Positions 1,915 through 58,407 of a stretch of DNA of 64,000 nt are shown in pieces; positions within the stretch are counted from its first letter, which is position 1; the number at the start of each line of letters is the position of its first letter. Both the position numbers and the translations under genes were made by a program. Origin of the DNA: Alphaproteobacteria bacterium (GTDB lineage Bacteria > Pseudomonadota > Alphaproteobacteria > Methylaequorales > Methylaequoraceae); assembly GCA_019650635.1 (NCBI GenBank), contig BOXE01000007.1, positions 894 through 64,893 on the forward strand, read 5' to 3'. Under the pieces are notes generated by a model. The model was not told the origin of the DNA, did not search any database, and was given only the letters and a program-made list of their open reading frames with translations.

Positions 1915-2275
1915 TTCAGTAAACCTCTATAATCCTCTCAAACGGGAAACAAATTATCAATCATTTACGTATACTATTCAAAATGTAATTGAAAAAGTGT
2001 TATTTTAATAAATAATCTACCAAATTATTTTCCAATAGAATCACTACTCTCTAGACCCTTAATTTAGAAACTTTTCCCCTAAAAAGCATGACCTCACGGG
2101 TTCGGAAAAATATGCTAATTTTAAATTATAAAATATTATTTGAATTTGAAACTATTATATTTTTTCACTAGTCTGATTAACATAGAAAAAGAAAAGTTTG
2201 AATTTATAAAGTAAGAATTACTAGATAAAATTAATAATTTTTCAAAATAATCAGATTTGACCTCTGGAAGATTAT

Positions 2276-3880
2276 ATGAATTTAGAAAATCTAGACTGGT
2301 ATATTATATTTGGATACTTAGTTTGTTTAATTCTTTTATCTGTTTATTTATCAAAAGATCAAAAAAACTTGAAAGATTATTTTGTTGCATCAAGAAAACA
2401 AAAATCAAAAAAATTGGCTATTTCTATTTTAGCTACTCAATGTTCAACAAATAGTATCTTAGGTGCTCCTGCTTTTGTTGCTTTTTCTGTTGGTGGTGGT
2501 TTGGGCTGGTTGAAATATGAATTAGCAGTGCCATTATCAATGATTGCAATCATGATTTTCATTTACCCAATTTTCTATAAATTAAAGATAATTTCAATAT
2601 ACGAGTACCTTGAAAAAAGGTTTGATCTCAAAACGAGATTATTAATGAGTTCATTATTTCTTTTTGTAAGAGTTTTTGCAACTGGAGTAATTGTTTACAG
2701 TGTATCAATAGTTATTGAATTAATAACAGGTTTAAGTTTTGTGTATTCCGTTCTCATACTTGGTCTTATAACAATCGTCTACGACGTTTTAGGAGGGATA
2801 AAAGCAATAATTTACAGTGATATTATTCAAATGATAATTTTGACTGTTGTACTAATCTTTATTCTTTTTTATTTAACAAGTATTTTTGGTGGTTTTAGAT
2901 CAATGTTTAATTATTTCCCAGATCAAAGAAATGTAAATTTAAATTTCTTTGAGCATGGACTTGGTGATGGAAAAGAATTTGCTTTTTGGCCAATGTTAAT
3001 TGGAGGTTTTTTTTTGTATATGTCTTATTATGGTTGTGATCAAAGTCAAATGCAAAAAGCACTATGTGCTAAAAATCAAAATGAGGGACAAAAAGTATTT
3101 TTTTTAAATGGTATTTTCAGATTTCCTCTTGTATTGCTGTACTGTTTAATTGGTGTAGGAATAGGTTCTTATTCCCAAATTAATGCTGATTTTATTTCAA
3201 GTCTTCCAAAACAAGATGGGATACCTAACTTTAATTTGGCTGTCCCTATTTTTCTAATAGATAATTTACCAATCGGAATTGTGGGACTGACGCTAGTAGC
3301 TTTGTTTTCTGCTGCTATGTCATCCCTAGATTCAGTGTTAAATAGCTTGTCTGCAGTAACAATGGAAGATTTTGTTAAAAGAATTAAAACTTTTAGATAT
3401 CTTTCAGAAAAAAATAACCTTTTCATATCAAGAGTAATAACCTTATTTTGGGGTTCATTAGCAATTATTTTGGCTTTTTATGTTGAAGACATTTCTAGCA
3501 ATGTTCTCATTGCAATCAATAAAATAGGTTCTTTGATTAATGGACCAATTATTGGTGTATTTACATTAGGTATTTTAACAAAAAAAATTAATGGTAATAG
3601 TGCTTGCATAGGAATAATTTGTGGATTTTTATTTAACCTATACTGTTGGGTTTATTTAGTTAACGTATCTTGGCTTTGGTGGAATGCAATTGGTTTTGTT
3701 GTTACTTTAAAAATTGCAATAGTGCACGACTTTTTTTTCTCCAACTTTCAAGCAAATGAAACTTTTGTTTGGTCATTAAAATCCTTCAAAAAATTGCACT
3801 TTAATAACACTTGGAAAACTCGGTATATTATTTTGTTCATTTGGTTTATTTTAATATTTTCTTTAATTTATTTCTTCTAG
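2276..3880 (+). CDS. Sodium:solute symporter family (SSS/SLC5) transporter
   Basis: 534 aa, about 13 TM, SSS signature region GGIKAIIYSDIIQMIIL. Confidence 0.85.
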   Translation: MNLENLDWYIIFGYLVCLILLSVYLSKDQKNLKDYFVASRKQKSKKLAISILATQCSTNSILGAPAFVAFSVGGGLGWLKYELAVPLSMIAIMIFIYPIFYKLKIISIYEYLEKRFDLKTRLLMSSLFLFVRVFATGVIVYSVSIVIELITGLSFVYSVLILGLITIVYDVLGGIKAIIYSDIIQMIILTVVLIFILFYLTSIFGGFRSMFNYFPDQRNVNLNFFEHGLGDGKEFAFWPMLIGGFFLYMSYYGCDQSQMQKALCAKNQNEGQKVFFLNGIFRFPLVLLYCLIGVGIGSYSQINADFISSLPKQDGIPNFNLAVPIFLIDNLPIGIVGLTLVALFSAAMSSLDSVLNSLSAVTMEDFVKRIKTFRYLSEKNNLFISRVITLFWGSLAIILAFYVEDISSNVLIAINKIGSLINGPIIGVFTLGILTKKINGNSACIGIICGFLFNLYCWVYLVNVSWLWWNAIGFVVTLKIAIVHDFFFSNFQANETFVWSLKSFKKLHFNNTWKTRYIILFIWFILIFSLIYFF

Positions 3881-3929
3881 TGGTTTTTACGGATTTATAT
3901 AACATTTGGGTTAAAGATATTTCTTATCA

Positions 3930-4019
3930 CTGTCTCTCCTTATCTATCTGAAAGCCCTGAATTCTCATATCTTGAGCTTCTTTATTTAATAATTTTCCCT
4001 CCGAGATTACTCCCCTTAA
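3930..4019. repeat. Pyrimidine-rich intergenic element, copy C (CTGTCTCTCC-N5-TATCTGAAAGCC ... TACTCCCCTTAA)
   Basis: Same end motifs as 1396..1520; a third partial match (TATCTTAAAGCC after a pyrimidine tract) lies at 4271..4302. Confidence 0.35.
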
Positions 4020-4127
4020 TTTTCAACTAAAAGATTAACCAAATGTGAATAACACCCTCAGAGTTGATTAAGAAAAAAATAATAAAAAGGGTATAATTTT
4101 ATTAACTTTTTATTTAAGGAGTAAACA

Positions 4128-4205
4128 ATGGCTTGGACAAAACCAATGATTTCTGAAATCTCTGTTGGTCTTGAAATCAATTCTTACGCTTGCGCTGAGA
4201 AGTAG
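4128..4205 (+). CDS. pqqA: PqqA-type peptide (25 aa, MAWTKPMISEISVGLEINSYACAEK), copy 1
   Basis: AAGGAG at 4116-4121 lies 6 nt before the ATG. Trp3, Pro6 and the Glu16-x3-Tyr20 PqqA hallmark are present. An identical peptide is encoded at 18563..18640 with only synonymous differences. Too short for the ORF track. Confidence 0.75.
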   Translation: MAWTKPMISEISVGLEINSYACAEK

Positions 4206-4234
4206 TTTCGATCTATAAAGATGAAATTTTAAAA

Positions 4235-4262
4235 GCCTGGCTAAGAAGTCAGGTTTTTTTTT
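4235..4262 (+). terminator. Rho-independent terminator after pqqA-like copy 1
   Basis: Stem CCTGGCT / AGTCAGG (one G-U pair), loop AAGA, followed by T9. Confidence 0.75.
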
Positions 4263-4466
4263 GCTTAAATTAAACCTTTCCTTACCCTTTTATCTTAAAG
4301 CCTTGTCTTTTTGCCCTCTAGAGCTGATTTCATATCTACGTATGCCCTATAATAACTATTTATTGTTATCTTTATGATTTCTATATATACCTAAAATGAT
4401 AAATAGTTTTTTATAATAAATTTCTTATTTAATTTACTCTTATTTTTGCAAATCAAACACTAAATT

Positions 4467-18291: not shown

Positions 18292-18562
18292 AGTAATTAT
18301 TTAATGTATAAATTAATATTAGCTAGATGTTTATAAATATAAATTGTTTTTCTACGTAATTCACGTTTCATTTTGTATTCAATGAGAATAAAAAATAACT
18401 GAAGATAATCTATTAACAAAATAATTATTAATAATAGTTTACATAGTTTAATAATAACTATTCATTTCAAATACATTAACAAGATATGAATATTAGAATC
18501 AGCAAACGTTAATTTAGATTTAATATATTGTATTCTAATATTAACTTTTTAAAGGATAAATA

Positions 18563-18640
18563 ATGGCTTGGACAAAACCTATGATTTCTGAAATCTCTGT
18601 AGGTCTTGAAATCAATTCTTATGCTTGCGCTGAGAAGTAG
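18563..18640 (+). CDS. pqqA: PqqA-type peptide, copy 2 (identical 25-aa product)
   Basis: Differs from 4128..4205 at only three third-codon positions (cca/cct, gtt/gta, tac/tat); AAAGGA upstream; own terminator. Confidence 0.75.
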   Translation: MAWTKPMISEISVGLEINSYACAEK

Positions 18641-18670
18641 TTTCAAACTATAGATTAATTTCTTTAAAAA

Positions 18671-18698
18671 GCCTGGCTAAGCAGTCAGGTTTTTTTTT
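18671..18698 (+). terminator. Rho-independent terminator after pqqA-like copy 2
   Basis: CCTGGCT / AGTCAGG stem, loop AAGC, T9 tail. Confidence 0.75.
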
Positions 18699-19208: not shown

Positions 19209-19829
19209 TCAAATAACATTATTGAAACTTAATAATCGAAATTGTCCACCTTTGTGTTTATTATCCTTTTTTGAAAGCATTTCAAGAACACTATAGCTTT
19301 GATATGTAACTTCCAATCCAATTGCAAAATCAGGTTTAATTTGTAAAGCATGAGATAATATTGCCCTTATTGTACCTGCGTGTGTTATGATCAAAATACT
19401 CTGCCCAGCTTTTACTTTTAATTTTTTGAGCCAAATCTCTACTCTTTTACTCTGTTCTAGAAAACTTTCTCCATTTGGCGGTGAAAATTCAGGAGAAATA
19501 AATGAAAAATTATGTTTGTCTTCATTTTTATTTATAAGTTTCCAAATTTCAGAAATTTTTTTTCCTGACCAATCTCCGAAGCTTTGTTCAACCAGATTGT
19601 TTTCTGTAATGATTTTTGAATACTGTTTATATCTTGATAAAGCTTCTGCTGTTTGAATTGTTCGTTTTAAAGGACTCACATACCAATCACAATTATCTGG
19701 TAAACAAGTTGCCAATTTTTTAATTTTATTATTTTTTATAATTGCATCTGGATTATGTTGTGAAAAAAAACCCGTAATTTGTTTTACAGGTGCATGCCGT
19801 ATTAAAAATAATTTCGATGGTTTAATCAA
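19209..19829 (-). CDS. cobC: Histidine phosphatase family protein, likely alpha-ribazole phosphatase
   Basis: LIRHAPV (RHG-type) and ITHAGTIRA motifs; directly downstream of and overlapping cobS. Confidence 0.65.
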   Translation of the reverse strand: MIKPSKLFLIRHAPVKQITGFFSQHNPDAIIKNNKIKKLATCLPDNCDWYVSPLKRTIQTAEALSRYKQYSKIITENNLVEQSFGDWSGKKISEIWKLINKNEDKHNFSFISPEFSPPNGESFLEQSKRVEIWLKKLKVKAGQSILIITHAGTIRAILSHALQIKPDFAIGLEVTYQSYSVLEMLSKKDNKHKGGQFRLLSFNNVI

Positions 19830-20609
19830 TTTACAACAAGAATTACTATAATATTTCCAAATAAAAACATTATATCTGTTAAGAAAGCGATTGCTCCTAA
19901 TATGTCTCCGTTAATACCTCCTATGGCTTTTTTCGATTTTTTTCCAATTAAAAGTATTGTTAAGGTCATTAAGATTATGCCGAATAATATTCCATAGATA
20001 TCTAACACAAACAATGTAGGTAATATCCAAGTTAAAGTAGCTATAAATAAACACTTATTTGAAATTTTTCCAACTATACTTGCTGTTTTTGCAAACTCTG
20101 AATTATTGAATAAGTTTCTTGCTATCATAATGAGAGTTTGCCAGTAGCAAATCCAATGGAAAAATAGCAACTAATGGATATCCTGACTCAAATAAAGCTA
20201 ATATTATTCCTAGTTTAACCAAAATACCTAATACTAATGACATTACTCCATAGGTTCCAAGGCGACTATCATGAATAATTTTATCAATATTTCTAGGAGA
20301 GCCCCCTGCCCCGAGACCGTCTGCAGTATCTGCTAATCCATCTTCATGAAAAGCACCAGTAAGGAGAACACTGAGTGTGATAGCTATAACACAAGACAAA
20401 AAAACAGGAAGTCCCACTTGAATCAGTATATCCCCAGCACCACCAGATAATATTCCTACTAAAAAACCAACTGATGGAAAAGACCAACTAGCTCTTGTTA
20501 AATCTGGTGCTTTTTTTGAGAAATAGGACCATTTTACTGGTATTCTAGTAAAGAACATAAGTGTTGCAAAAAAATCCATTACATATTTATTTTTAAGAAG
20601 TAAATGCAT
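19826..20609 (-). CDS. cobS: Adenosylcobinamide-GDP ribazoletransferase (cobalamin synthase), frame break about 20103-20170
   Basis: Multi-TM protein with FFTRIP and AFHEDGLADTADG motifs, split across ORFs 20103..20609 and 19826..20170. Confidence 0.8.
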
Positions 20610-31596: not shown

Positions 31597-33085
31597 ATGA
31601 CCTATGTAAAACTTAAAAATCTATTTGAAGAACAAAGTTTACTAAATGATATAAATGGTATCTTAAATTGGGACATGGCTACATATATGCCTCAAAAATC
31701 AAGAAATCAGCGTGTTAGACAAATACAAAAAATTCTTGATTACAAAAAAAGCATTTTTGACCAAATTAAAAAAAAAGAATTATTTAAAAAGATCAATGAT
31801 TCCAGCCTGAGTCCTGAAGATAAATTAAACCTTAATTTAATGAGAGATAAGTTTGAATACTTTGATATCGTTCCATATGAATATATAAAAAAAAAAAACC
31901 TCACTTGCAATTTTGTGTGAAGGTGAATGGAGAAAAGCTAAACTAAAATCAAATTTTAATTTAGTTAAAAAATCATTTAAAAAGCTTGTTGATGTAATAA
32001 AGATTGAGTCTGAAATACTATCTCAAAAAAAGGATAAAACAAAATACGATTGTTTATTATCTAAATACGACAGATCACTGACCTCTTCACGCATTACAAA
32101 AATTTTTTCTAGGATAGAATCGTTTTTAAAAAAGAATATCCCGTCAATTTTAGAAAAACAAAGAAGCTATAAATCAATTTCTTTTACCGAAAATCTCTCA
32201 GAATCAGAACAATTTGAACTATCAAAAGATTTTATGAAAAAACTTGGCTTTGATTTTTCTCGCGGAAGAATTGATAAAAGTTCACATCCTTTTTGCGGTG
32301 GAAGTTCTGAAGATATTAGAATTACTACAAGATATAATGATGCAGACTCATTTTCTTGCTTTGATGCTCTTATGCACGAAACAGGTCACGCTATTTATGA
32401 ACAAGGACTACCTAAAAAATGGTTGCATCAGCCATTAGGTTCATCTGGAGGAATGTCACTTCATGAAAGCCAATCACTTTTTATTGAAATGCAAATTATT
32501 AAATCTCTACAAGTAAGCCATTTAATCGAAAAAATAATCAAGAATAATTTTGGGAAGAAAAATCCTACTTGGAATCAAGAAAATATTTATAGAAACAGAA
32601 AGCAGGTAAAAAAGAACTATATAAGAGTAGATGCTGACGAAGTTCATTATCCTCTTCATATAATGCATAGGTTCAAAATTGAAAAAAAAATTATTGAAGA
32701 AGACTTTGATGTCAATTTTCTTCCGGAACTTTGGAATGAAGAATTTTATAATATATTCAATATAAAAGTTGATAGTGACCAAAACGGTTGTTTGCAAGAT
32801 ATTCATTGGTTTGGTGGAGATTTTGGTTATTTTCCTACTTATAGTATTGGGGCATTTATTGCAGCTCAGATTTTTGATTGTATAAAAAAACAGAATCCTA
32901 AATTAGAAATCGATTTAAAAAATGGAAATTTTTTACCAATAATCAATTGGTTGAAAAAAAATATTCATAGCCACGGTAATTATTATAAAATTGACGAACT
33001 TTTATTAAATGTGACAGGTGAAAAGCTGAATTTAAAATACTTCGAAAAACACATTACAGACAGATACTTAAAAGAAAAAAAATAA
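31597..33085 (+). CDS. Carboxypeptidase Taq (M32) metallopeptidase, frame break in the A12 tract 31887-31898
   Basis: HETGHAIYEQG zinc motif, HESQS, DIHW; the N-terminal ORF 31597..31920 joins ORF 31913..33085 across the poly(A) run. Confidence 0.85.
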
Positions 33086-36085: not shown

Positions 36086-38245
<2,160 letters not shown>

Positions 38246-55665: not shown

Positions 55666-57047
55666 TAAAAAAACTCTATATTTACTTCTGAATATTTTTC
55701 TATTTCTTTGATAGATGACGGTTTAGAAAAAATTATTAACTTATCATTTACATATATAGTTGTGTTTTCATCTGGAAAAATCAATTTCTTATTTCTAACG
55801 ATACCACCAATAACCACACCATCTGGCATATCTAAATCAATTATTTTTTTATCAGCAAATTTGGTAGTAGGTAAAATCTCTATTTCCATTATTTCACCTC
55901 TGTCATTTCCAAAATCGTGAACCTCTTTTACTTTTCCTCTTCTCACATACTGTAAAATGGCTGAAGTTGTGATATTACCAGGATGGATAAGAACATCTAA
56001 ATCAAGCTTTTTTGACAAATTTCTATAATTTGTGTTATTAACGATCGCCATTGTTCTTTTGCATCCAAGATCTTTAGCCAAAAGTGAAGAGAAAATATTT
56101 ACCTCATCATCATCTGTTACAGTTATAATTGCTTCCGAATCGGATGCACCAGCATCTCTTAGTAGATTAGAATCGATTGCGTCTCCGCATAAAATAGTAC
56201 TTTGTTTTGAGAGCTTAGAAGAAATATCTTTTGTCCTCTCTAAATTATTATCAATAATTTTACAATTGATATCAGGATAGTCCTTCTCTAAAATTTTTAA
56301 AATATTCAAACCAATATTTCCAGCACCTACAACAATTAATTTTCTATTTTCTTGAGGTTTAATTCCAAAGACTCTAAGTGCTCTTAAAATATCATCATTT
56401 TTAATACAAATATAAATATCATCACCAGGATAAAGCTCAACTTTTCCAGTAGGAATTATAATCTCGTCTTTTCTAAAAATTGATAAAATCTTTACCTCTA
56501 GACCAGAAAAAATTCCTGGAAGCATTCGTAAAGGAGTATTTATTATTGGGCACGAATCATTTATCGATATTCCAATTATTCTTGCTATTTTATCACCTAA
56601 ATAGAATGAATCAAAAGCACCTGGAGTATTTAATTTTCTTATAATATCTTTTGCAACCTCTAACTCCGGTGAAATTATTGCATCAACATCAATTTTTCCT
56701 GGAGAGAAAATTTTCTTTGCATAATTTGACTTTAAATATTCAGATTCTTTAATTCTTGCTACTTTTAAAGGGATTTTAAATAAATGATTTGCAAGTTCAC
56801 ATGAAATAATATTAAGTTCATCACTTTCTGTAACTGCAATAATCATGTCAGCTTCATCAGCACCTGCTTTCTCAAGAATTTCTGGATGGGTTGTTTTTCC
56901 ACAAACACTTTTCAAATCCACACTTTTATTTAACATCCTTAAACTCGACTCTGATTTGTCGATGATTGTTACATCATTATCCTCGTAAACAAGCTGTTTA
57001 GCAATATTAGAACCAATTTCACCCGCACCGCAAACTATAATTTTCAT
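55665..57047 (-). CDS. trkA: Trk potassium uptake system NAD-binding subunit
   Basis: Two RCK/KTN modules (MKIIVCGAGEIG.., LIVVGAGNIG..). Confidence 0.9.
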   Translation of the reverse strand: MKIIVCGAGEIGSNIAKQLVYEDNDVTIIDKSESSLRMLNKSVDLKSVCGKTTHPEILEKAGADEADMIIAVTESDELNIISCELANHLFKIPLKVARIKESEYLKSNYAKKIFSPGKIDVDAIISPELEVAKDIIRKLNTPGAFDSFYLGDKIARIIGISINDSCPIINTPLRMLPGIFSGLEVKILSIFRKDEIIIPTGKVELYPGDDIYICIKNDDILRALRVFGIKPQENRKLIVVGAGNIGLNILKILEKDYPDINCKIIDNNLERTKDISSKLSKQSTILCGDAIDSNLLRDAGASDSEAIITVTDDDEVNIFSSLLAKDLGCKRTMAIVNNTNYRNLSKKLDLDVLIHPGNITTSAILQYVRRGKVKEVHDFGNDRGEIMEIEILPTTKFADKKIIDLDMPDGVVIGGIVRNKKLIFPDENTTIYVNDKLIIFSKPSSIKEIEKYSEVNIEFF

Positions 57048-58407
57048 TTTTCTAATTCTGTTTTGATGTTAAGTGATTTAAGTTTTCTGTAAATTGCAGT
57101 TCGTTCCATTCCAATTTCTTTAGCCATTTTTGTTACATTATATTTGAATTTTTCTAAATTAAATAGGAGATATTTTTTTTCAAAATCTTCTCTTGCACTC
57201 TTAATAGACATATTCATAGAGTCTTCAAAAAAAATATTCTTTTTATCAACAAGATTGGTACCTAAACCAATAACATCACTTAAATTAATTTCGTCATTAT
57301 CTATATTATTCAACATTACAATTATCCACTCTACAAACTTTTTAAGTTGAAAAATATTTCTAAAATAATCTAAATCAATCAAATATGAAATAACTTCAGT
57401 GGAAAATTTCTTTATTTTCAGACCTTTTTCAATAAATATCTCAGATGCAAAAATTTCTATTAATTCTCCCATATCATTTTTTCTATTAGATAGACTTGGT
57501 ATTTCTATGATTGTAAAATTTAATTTTTTTAATAAATCTTTTCTTAAACTTTGCTTGCAAGATTTTTATTTGACGAAGCAATTACTCTTAAATCTAAAAC
57601 ATTAGGATTTAATGCTCCAATTCTATAATATTTTTTTTCATCAAGAACTCTTAATATTTGTCCTTGTAATTTATCTGCTAAAGATGTGATATTCTTAAAA
57701 TATATAGTCCCATTATTTACTTCGTCTAGCAAACCTAATTCTTTGATTACTTGATTATCTTCAGATCCAAAAAGTTGTTCTTCAAATATTTTTTTATCTA
57801 ATCTACAATCTATTGATTTAAAATATTTTTTTGATCTATGAGAATAGTCATGTATTTTTGATGCAACAAATTCTTTACCACTTCCTTCGTCACCAATAAG
57901 TACAATATTAGAATCAGTTTTACTGACTTCTTTAATTTTTTTTTCAAGGAGTTTTGAAGATTTTGAAATTGCAACAATTTCAGAATCCAAATCTTTTCTT
58001 GAAAATTTTTCAATTTTCTTTTTTAAAATATAATTCTCTATTGCTTTCTTAATTTTGAAAATAAGTAGATCACTATCAAATGGTTTCTCTATGAAATCAT
58101 ATGCTCCCTTTTTAATAGAATTTACTGCTGTTTCAATATTCCCATGACCACTAATCATGATGACTGGAATATTGTGATCAATTCTTTGAAGTTTTTCTAG
58201 AGCTTGAAAACCATCAAATTTTGAATTATTCAACCAAATATCCAATAGAACAAGAGAAAATGATTTTTGTTTAAAAATCTCTAAACCCTTTTCTGAAGTA
58301 TTAGCTTTATCACATGAATATCCAATATCATTCAGAAGACCACTAAGTTGGTTACAAATATCTGGTTCATCATCAATGATTAAAATTTTACTATCTTTAA
58401 ATTTCAT
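57044..58407 (-). CDS. ntrX: Response regulator NtrX (sigma54-activator-like), frame break about 57545-57580
   Basis: Receiver domain (ILIIDDEPDI..LLDIWL), AAA+ core (LIGDEGSGKE), C-terminal HTH (MERTAIYRKLKSLNI). Confidence 0.8.

Follow-up and report, generated by a model that had tools for sequence, protein, structure and literature searches.

Two pqqA Cassettes Within 64 kb

The window, i.e., the whole 64-kb stretch of DNA that was analysed, carries two copies of a short gene encoding the 25-amino acid peptide MAWTKPMISEISVGLEINSYACAEK*. Both are on the forward strand, at a distance of 14,435 nt, with copy 1 upstream. Copy 1 is located between a gene for an SSF symporter and the gene for BipA (SSF symporter > pqqA > BipA), and copy 2 between a convergent Adhesin_E-like gene and a divergent Zn-peptidase gene. 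The features that make up the two cassettes are listed below.

4034..4071, forward strand: copy 1 upstream element (ATTAAC, 4034-4039; GTGAATA, 4045-4051; TCAG, 4058-4061; TTAA, 4068-4071)
4083..4097, forward strand: copy 1 putative -10-like hexamers (TAAAAA, 4083-4088, at the family-consensus position; TATAAT, 4092-4097)
4100..4121, forward strand: copy 1 5′-UTR block, TATTAAC plus the Shine-Dalgarno sequence AAGGAG (4116-4121), from alignment
4128..4205, forward strand: pqqA copy 1, encoding MAWTKPMISEISVGLEINSYACAEK*, from translation and alignment
4231..4262, forward strand: copy 1 intrinsic terminator, from a terminator scan (-17.4 kcal/mol; z = -3.9 versus shuffles)
18475..18512, forward strand: copy 2 upstream element (ATTAAC, 18475-18480; ATGAATA, 18486-18492; TCAG, 18499-18502; TTAA, 18509-18512)
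18524..18529, forward strand: copy 2 putative -10-like hexamer TATATT, at the family-consensus TATAAT position, 25-30 nt after TCAG
18539..18556, forward strand: copy 2 5′-UTR block, TATTAAC plus the Shine-Dalgarno-like sequence AAAGGA (18551-18556), from alignment
18563..18640, forward strand: pqqA copy 2, 25 codons and TAG, encoding MAWTKPMISEISVGLEINSYACAEK*, from translation
18666..18698, forward strand: copy 2 intrinsic terminator, a 13-bp stem with a 4-nt loop and T9, from a terminator scan (-15.3 kcal/mol; z = -3.1)

Over the 78 nt of the coding sequence, pairwise alignment of the two copies shows exactly three differences, cca/cct (Pro6), gtt/gta (Val13) and tac/tat (Tyr20), all of them at synonymous third positions. 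Synonymous changes constitute 47 of the 216 single-base changes possible in codons 2-25 (21.8%), and the probability of three synonymous differences out of three is p = 0.010 if mutation is uniform. Translation and alignment agree here with the initial annotation, which had described two cassettes some 14 kb apart with an identical peptide and three exclusively synonymous differences. It had also described near-identical terminators preceded by a diverged spacer, and this is borne out by alignment and by a pattern scan: AAAAGCCTGGCTAAG[A/C]AGTCAGG followed by T9 has two matches in the window (0.00 expected in shuffles), and the 25 nt that separate the stop codon from the hairpin have diverged between the copies. 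The upstream similarity of about 25 nt that it reported corresponds to a block just 5′ of both genes (ATTAACTTTTTA; 4101-4112 and 18540-18551), but that figure was too short, as conserved blocks with fixed spacing extend for some 95 nt before each ATG.

The other genes in the window are housekeeping genes, and include those for BipA, a CobW-like GTPase, SSF symporters, CobT, a TonB receptor, lactate permease, ClpB, NtrBC/NtrYX and TrkA. Among the window ORFs scanned, we found neither pqqBCDE nor any gene for a PQQ-dependent enzyme.

Several genes elsewhere in the window appear to be split. Two adjacent ORFs of 333 and 302 amino acids on the reverse strand (36086-38224) both match haem peroxidase PF00141 and together resemble a split catalase-peroxidase (KatG). 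They occupy the sole stretch of raised G+C content in the window (0.38 versus approximately 0.29) and may represent a gene obtained by horizontal transfer, with either a frameshift or an assembly error. An M32 carboxypeptidase (31597-33085, forward; 107 + 390 amino acids), an NtrX-like sigma-54 activator (57044-58407, reverse; 287 + 142 amino acids) and a histidine phosphatase (19209-20170, reverse; 206 + 114 amino acids, a single ORF in relatives) are likewise apparently split, which suggests either real pseudogenes or assembly errors of the indel type. The two pqqA copies are intact nevertheless.

The Window Peptides Are PqqA

The window peptide scores 30.8 bits against the Pfam model PF08042 (PqqA; gathering score 21.1) and 36.7 bits against the NCBIfam equivalog TIGR02107 (PQQ precursor peptide PqqA; cutoff 20), thus above the cutoff in either case. 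It agrees with these families in its length of 25 amino acids, its W-x-x-P leader and its G-x-E-x3-Y core, as well as in having one paralogue directly 5′ of pqqBCDE and a hairpin in the pqqA-pqqB interval. Nothing essential sets it apart, although the 16-residue core, EISVGLEINSYACAEK, is unusually invariant here.

In PQQ biosynthesis, PqqD binds the leader of the precursor peptide, the radical-SAM enzyme PqqE cross-links a Glu to a Tyr residue, and PqqB and PqqC finish the cofactor; one PqqA peptide is destroyed per PQQ molecule made. The E-x3-Y motif of the window peptide comprises Glu16-Ile-Asn-Ser-Tyr20, and we take Glu16 and Tyr20 to be the PQQ-forming residues that are cross-linked by PqqE. 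Both are invariant in all copies found; most of our search patterns themselves demanded the two residues, but the scan that forced only the N-terminal half of the peptide (62 stretches) left both free.

Screening the whole window against Rfam 15 at gathering thresholds gave no matches, and a tRNA/tmRNA scan of the window found none. The opinion expressed earlier that the ORFs are real genes, and not chance ORFs or small RNAs, is upheld by the two model scores and by the empty Rfam screen: both window ORFs are bona fide PqqA precursor genes.

The Host and Its Operon-Linked pqqA

The BipA/TypA protein encoded downstream of copy 1 is 100% identical to its counterpart on contig NODE_2 of the single-amplified genome (SAG) AG-903-D15. 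Since the surrounding DNA is approximately 98.6% identical at the nucleotide level, the window stems from a very close relative of AG-903-D15, in a separate assembly. The available part of a published supplementary table classifies AG-903-D15 as GTDB o__TMED127; g__GCA-2691245, with a full “methylotrophy island” on NODE_1 (Glass et al.; bioRxiv 10.1101/2025.06.11.659106, AEM PMC12542740). Members of TMED127 (“Methylaequorales”) live in the sea as obligate methylotrophs and have genomes of about 1.5 Mb; according to recent work, no other methanol oxidisers are transcriptionally as active in oligotrophic surface seawater. Their xoxF5, encoding a lanthanide- and PQQ-dependent methanol dehydrogenase, accounts for 16-57% of transcripts, and a PQQ-dependent glucose dehydrogenase is likewise highly expressed (Glass et al., PMC12542740).

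In AG-892-F10, which represents a congeneric sister species, pqqA is located directly upstream of pqqB, pqqC, pqqD and pqqE, the products of which all score above the respective equivalog cutoff:

AG-892-F10 PqqB: TIGR02108, 392.8 bits
AG-892-F10 PqqC: TIGR02111, 344 bits
AG-892-F10 PqqD: TIGR03859, 85.3 bits
AG-892-F10 PqqE: TIGR02109, 573.2 bits

The order pqqA-pqqB-pqqC on NODE_1 of AG-903-D15 starts in the same way as the AG-892-F10 operon. In one conserved context, the genes lutE-lutF-lutC-lutG are followed by pqqA, a hairpin and a 310-amino acid ORF that begins with MLKVLILGSA; this context accounts for 24 of the 60 full-pattern matches described below. Only one pqqB-linked context was seen per genome. 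The hairpin between pqqA and pqqB (GCCCCTTAAG...CTTAAGGGGC) matches the stem-loop in the pqqA-pqqB intergenic region that is a classical feature of other bacteria. In the first 530 nt of PATB01000020.1, a contig of the metagenome-assembled genome (MAG) SAT166, two operon-type pqqA copies, separated by about 90 nt, point towards each other as mutual reverse complements; this is most likely no biological feature but an artefact of assembly, with an inverted duplication at the contig end.

The window copies had been called two orphan monocistronic genes. They are monocistronic, each with a promoter-like element and a terminator of its own, but not orphans, as relatives carry a pqqA-linked operon. 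Because the canonical pqqABCDE operon is very probably present in the genome, as read from the closest relatives (the presence of pqqBCDE being known from relatives at about 98.6% nucleotide identity to the window and beyond), the window copies are additional genes. Their peptides most likely feed a single PqqB/C/D/E machinery encoded elsewhere in the genome.

Copy Number, Contexts and Leader Variants

We have screened one genome per GTDB species with a degenerate-codon pattern covering residues 3-20, which gave 60 matches, each encoding the identical 25-mer; the 33 genomes with a match belong essentially all to this clade. Two further scans each forced just half of the peptide. With all scans combined, this genome-wide count of pqqA-like copies, proposed in the initial annotation, amounts to at least 100 distinct copies in some 40 TMED127 genomes, with up to four or more in a single, incomplete SAG or MAG. 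The arrangement is that of the multi-copy pqqA systems: several pqqA genes per genome, a single pqqB-linked context and an xoxF5 methylotroph as host. All matches in a metagenome scan were on genomic-looking contigs, with no transcript-like short contig amongst them.

AG-903-D15 has four copies: the operon copy, the equivalents of the two window copies and a leader variant, MAWTKPTISEISVGLEINSYACAEK (Met7 to Thr), located on NODE_2 at about 63.7 kb, some 40 kb upstream of the window start. This non-operon Met7-to-Thr paralogue is conserved in many genomes of genus g__GCA-2691245, while other genera have the leader variants M7I, T4N/K5T, S9T/A and I8L/F. The claim that the copies differ only at synonymous sites is therefore true for the two in the window but not for the family, in which leader residues 4, 5, 7, 8 and 9 vary among paralogues; the 16-residue core (E10-K25) is almost invariant.

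The non-operon copies occur in at least eight different gene contexts. A segment of 2.4 kb that includes the symporter gene and copy 1 (window 1940-4311) is absent from AG-908-F15 and AG-892-F10, which have about 110 bp instead. The presence of copy 1 is variable between species and, because it is missing from these close relatives, it is individually dispensable. In a search for the target-site duplications or inverted repeats of a mobile element, none were found around copy 2, and the flanks of copy 1 have just a weak imperfect direct repeat (3947-3959 and 4293-4305). A C/T-rich motif (ctgtctctcc...tatctgaaagcc) flanks the copy 1 cassette on either side (3929-3960 and 4275-4305); the two relatives that lack the segment have it once. 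In AG-907-I19 and AG-911-L17, a copy-1-type cassette is located between genes that, in the window, are neighbours of copy 2 and of copy 1, an arrangement that suggests rearrangements at pqqA cassettes.

Furthermore, pqqA genes of other marine lineages (from the metagenome and two genome loci) encode the identical 16-amino acid core, EISVGLEINSYACAEK, with different leaders (MWSKP[IV]ITE..., MTAWTKPIIAE... and MKQWTKPVATE...). Approximately 30-60 nt before the ATG, these genes carry a conserved motif of another kind, GTGGACTGCGGTCAC..GACAACCAGCAC.

A Conserved Upstream Element Specific for pqqA

Operon-linked and extra copies alike are preceded by a common element with the family consensus ATTAAC-N5-ATGAATA-N5-aTCAG-N6-TTAAg-N11-TATAAT. 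The spacing is identical in 129 distinct instances, found with a regular expression that permitted variable gaps, the consensus being anchored on TCAG. The expression TGAAY-N7-TCAG-N6-TTAA has two matches in the 64-kb window, each 5′ of a pqqA copy. In 706 kb of genome loci, all 84 matches to the core expression are upstream of pqqA, as are 53 of the 54 matches in 705 kb of metagenome loci. The element is essentially specific for pqqA.

With centres about 11 bp apart, the four blocks lie on one face of the helix; they take the place of a recognisable -35 box. At a distance of 16-18 nt from the -10-like hexamer, which is itself conserved, no canonical sigma-70 -35 box is conserved among the copies. 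The -10-like hexamer of copy 2 was missed by a generic promoter scan because it has no canonical -35 partner; the same scan paired the TATAAT of copy 1 (4092-4097) with TTAAGA at 18-nt spacing. As no -35 box is conserved, we infer that the element is a putative promoter, which would either depend on an activator, possibly a response regulator, or be read by an alternative sigma factor.

Conservation of the 5′-UTR block was deduced from an alignment of 84 upstream regions. The predicted 5′-UTR is approximately 27-35 nt long in the extra copies and approximately 45 nt, including a hairpin, in the operon copies. At the 3′ end of the extra copies, a GC-containing hairpin of 8-11 bp precedes a run of at least six T, and the terminator stems covary between loci by compensatory changes (CCTGGC/GTCAGG, CCCAGC/GCTGGG, CCTGAC/GTCAGG, CCCGGC/GCCGGG and GCTCACC/GGTGGGC). 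The best explanation is that each cassette constitutes a self-contained predicted transcription unit of about 230 nt, consisting of a promoter/activator element, a leader with a ribosome binding site, a 25-codon ORF and a strong terminator.

Since all copies carry the same upstream element, the extra copies are probably co-regulated with the operon copy. This bears on the idea that the extra copies are differentially specialised, in that their leader variants (M7T, M7I, T4N/K5T, S9T/A) or their flanks would serve particular conditions, or that the peptides would differ in affinity for PqqD or PqqE. Differences do exist: leader residues 4, 5, 7, 8 and 9 vary among the paralogues of one genome, the length of the UTR and the spacer after the stop codon are locus-specific, and a differential response of the pqqA genes of Methylovorus sp. 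MP688 is on record (Ge et al. 2015, as cited in PMC6520949). However, the two window copies encode the same peptide, and one element with identical spacing precedes all copies, the operon copy included, which points to common regulation. We consider specialisation possible, but rather unlikely.

Selection on the Peptide and Constraint on Synonymous Sites

Because the first scan forced 18 codons, unbiased allele counts were taken from the half-pattern scans. In the N-terminal-half scan (62 copies; codons 12-25 free), 15 synonymous alleles stand against one nonsynonymous allele (S12A). The C-terminal-half scan (95 copies; codons 1-12 free) yielded 13 synonymous and 17 nonsynonymous alleles, the latter confined to residues 4, 5, 7, 8, 9 and 12; M1, A2, W3, P6, E10 and I11 are invariant. 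When ORFs were located by the promoter element instead (n = 135), core substitutions were found in two (S12A, G14A), and a frameshift or premature stop in none. A second copy on NODE_1 of AG-911-L17 (minus strand, about 610 nt from the reversed start), in which Gly14 is replaced by Ala (MAWTKPTISEISVALEINSYACAEK), has its upstream element and its terminator intact.

The PqqA peptide is thus under purifying selection, a conclusion supported by the comparison with orthologous loci of relatives (15 synonymous versus one nonsynonymous core allele) and by the search for frameshifts and nonsynonymous drift in related genomes (none of the 135 ORFs frameshifted or stopped, and two with a core substitution). 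Selection on the peptide had been read at the outset from the synonymous-only divergence of the two window copies. The core alleles bear this out, but the synonymous sites are themselves constrained, so that there is constraint at the nucleotide level too. In genomes with PqqB proteins that are 75-85% identical, the same codon is used at conserved residues in a fraction of 0.89 in pqqA versus 0.51 in the adjacent pqqB. Since synonymous sites are so unusually constrained, a dN/dS argument from three differences is weaker than it appears.

Several of the nearly fixed codons are rare in this genome (ATC, 10% usage; TAC, 26%; TGC, 30%; GAG, 23%; AAG, 18%), and the rare codons GAG24 and AAG25 are conserved in pqqA. 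The codon pattern would fit a gene of very high expression that is under strong translational selection. Low synonymous divergence together with conserved rare codons hints at an extra constraint at the RNA level, which dosage alone does not explain. One could go further and suppose that the conserved unit acts also, or instead, as an RNA, either a small regulatory RNA or a structured mRNA, with the ORF kept by nucleotide constraint. The same-codon fraction, the near fixation of ATC, TGC, GAG and AAG and the short transcripts predicted to be bounded by a terminator would all suit such a role. Nevertheless, the 15-to-one ratio in the core is a signature of selection at the protein level, the peptide exceeds the cutoffs of the PqqA models with the complete modification machinery present (AG-892-F10), no Rfam family matches in the window, and the preference for C-ending or T-ending codons is also expected from translational selection on a very highly expressed gene. 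An RNA function of this kind is, therefore, very unlikely.

The synonymous states are specific for the locus: operon copies have GAG10 and GTA13, copies in the context of copy 2 have CCT6 and GTA13, and copies in the context of copy 1 have CCA6 and GTT13. Because these states are common to orthologues across species, the paralogues must predate speciation, without frequent gene conversion; gene conversion as the cause of peptide identity was rejected on the same grounds. This leaves little room for the view that the extra copies are neutral leftovers of duplication and recombination, kept alike by conversion from the operon copy. Such a view could invoke the lack of copy 1 in two close relatives and the variable, rearranged contexts of the copies, but the locus-specific states differ from those of the operon copy, essentially none of the more than 130 copies has a damaged promoter element, ribosome binding site, ORF or terminator, and streamlined genomes of about 1.5 Mb rarely retain neutral DNA. 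We regard it as the least credible of the explanations weighed.

Extra Copies and the Supply of PQQ Precursor

Gene identity, copy number, conservation pattern, cassette anatomy and the pqqBCDE genes of close relatives are direct observations. Against this background, the window cassettes are very probably genuine spare copies of pqqA, self-contained units that raise precursor supply; their expression and the dosage rationale are deduced, as is the nature of the upstream element. The extra copies would multiply the supply of PqqA for a single set of PqqB/C/D/E: PqqD would take the leader of the peptides they encode, PqqE would link Glu16 to Tyr20, and PqqB and PqqC would complete PQQ. As XoxF dominates the transcriptome, the demand for PQQ must be extreme, and precursor supply is the most likely role of the extra copies because one peptide is consumed per PQQ and xoxF5 accounts for 16-57% of the mRNA.

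The available part of the published TMED127 transcript table does not list pqqA, as the gene calls leave the interval between pqqB and lutG empty (Glass et al., PMC12542740). Likewise, neither the text nor the available portion of the supplementary text of that analysis mentions pqqA.

A bolder proposal is that of a dedicated duplicating module of promoter, peptide and terminator, in which the four-block element (ATTAAC / ATGAATA / TCAG / TTAAG) would be a putative pqqA-specific activator site and a second, RNA-level role would lie behind the synonymous constraint. We deem this improbable. If it were true, the dominant open-ocean methylotroph would perhaps have in pqqA some of its most abundant transcripts, unannotated to date.

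Comparison with Other Multi-Copy Systems

Spare pqqA copies are already known from other methanol users, of which the window pair is a further example. Methylophilaceae have 3-12 pqqA copies with a single pqqBCDE, a family tendency “noted before” (PMC4109929), and Methylovorus sp. MP688 (five pqqA) and Methylorubrum extorquens AM1 (three) are likewise multi-copy (PMC6520949). TMED127 shares with these methylotrophs the dispersed pqqA genes, the one processing set and a very high demand from PQQ-dependent methanol dehydrogenase, but differs in being an alphaproteobacterial order with a streamlined genome of about 1.5 Mb. Differential responses were reported for the genes of Methylovorus MP688, whereas the one fixed-spacing element here suggests co-regulation. 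The initial annotation had set the window copies apart from the multi-pqqA methylotrophs as unusual. This cannot be maintained: the window organism is itself a methylotroph, of TMED127/Methylaequorales, so that the contrast disappears and multi-copy pqqA is to be expected.

A parallel from general knowledge is offered by the prochlorosin-type RiPPs, in which many precursor genes are served by one maturase set, and hypervariable cores behind conserved leaders give diverse products. Short precursor genes scattered through a small marine genome with a single modification machinery are found in TMED127 as well, but here the core is invariant and the leader slightly variable, which would yield more of one product.

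The novelty is modest and concerns the lineage, TMED127 being new for this arrangement, the number of copies within about 1.5 Mb of genome, an upstream element specific for pqqA and the strong constraint on synonymous sites. What is known of PQQ biosynthesis is unchanged by these copies. The annotation of TMED127 is corrected, and the sequence provides a handle for quantifying precursor supply in metatranscriptomes. TMED127 genomes of about 1.5 Mb keep at least four pqqA genes, independently transcribed by their predicted anatomy, with a common and highly specific upstream element; the supply of a sacrificial precursor would thus be important enough to these methylotrophs to be amplified despite genome streamlining.
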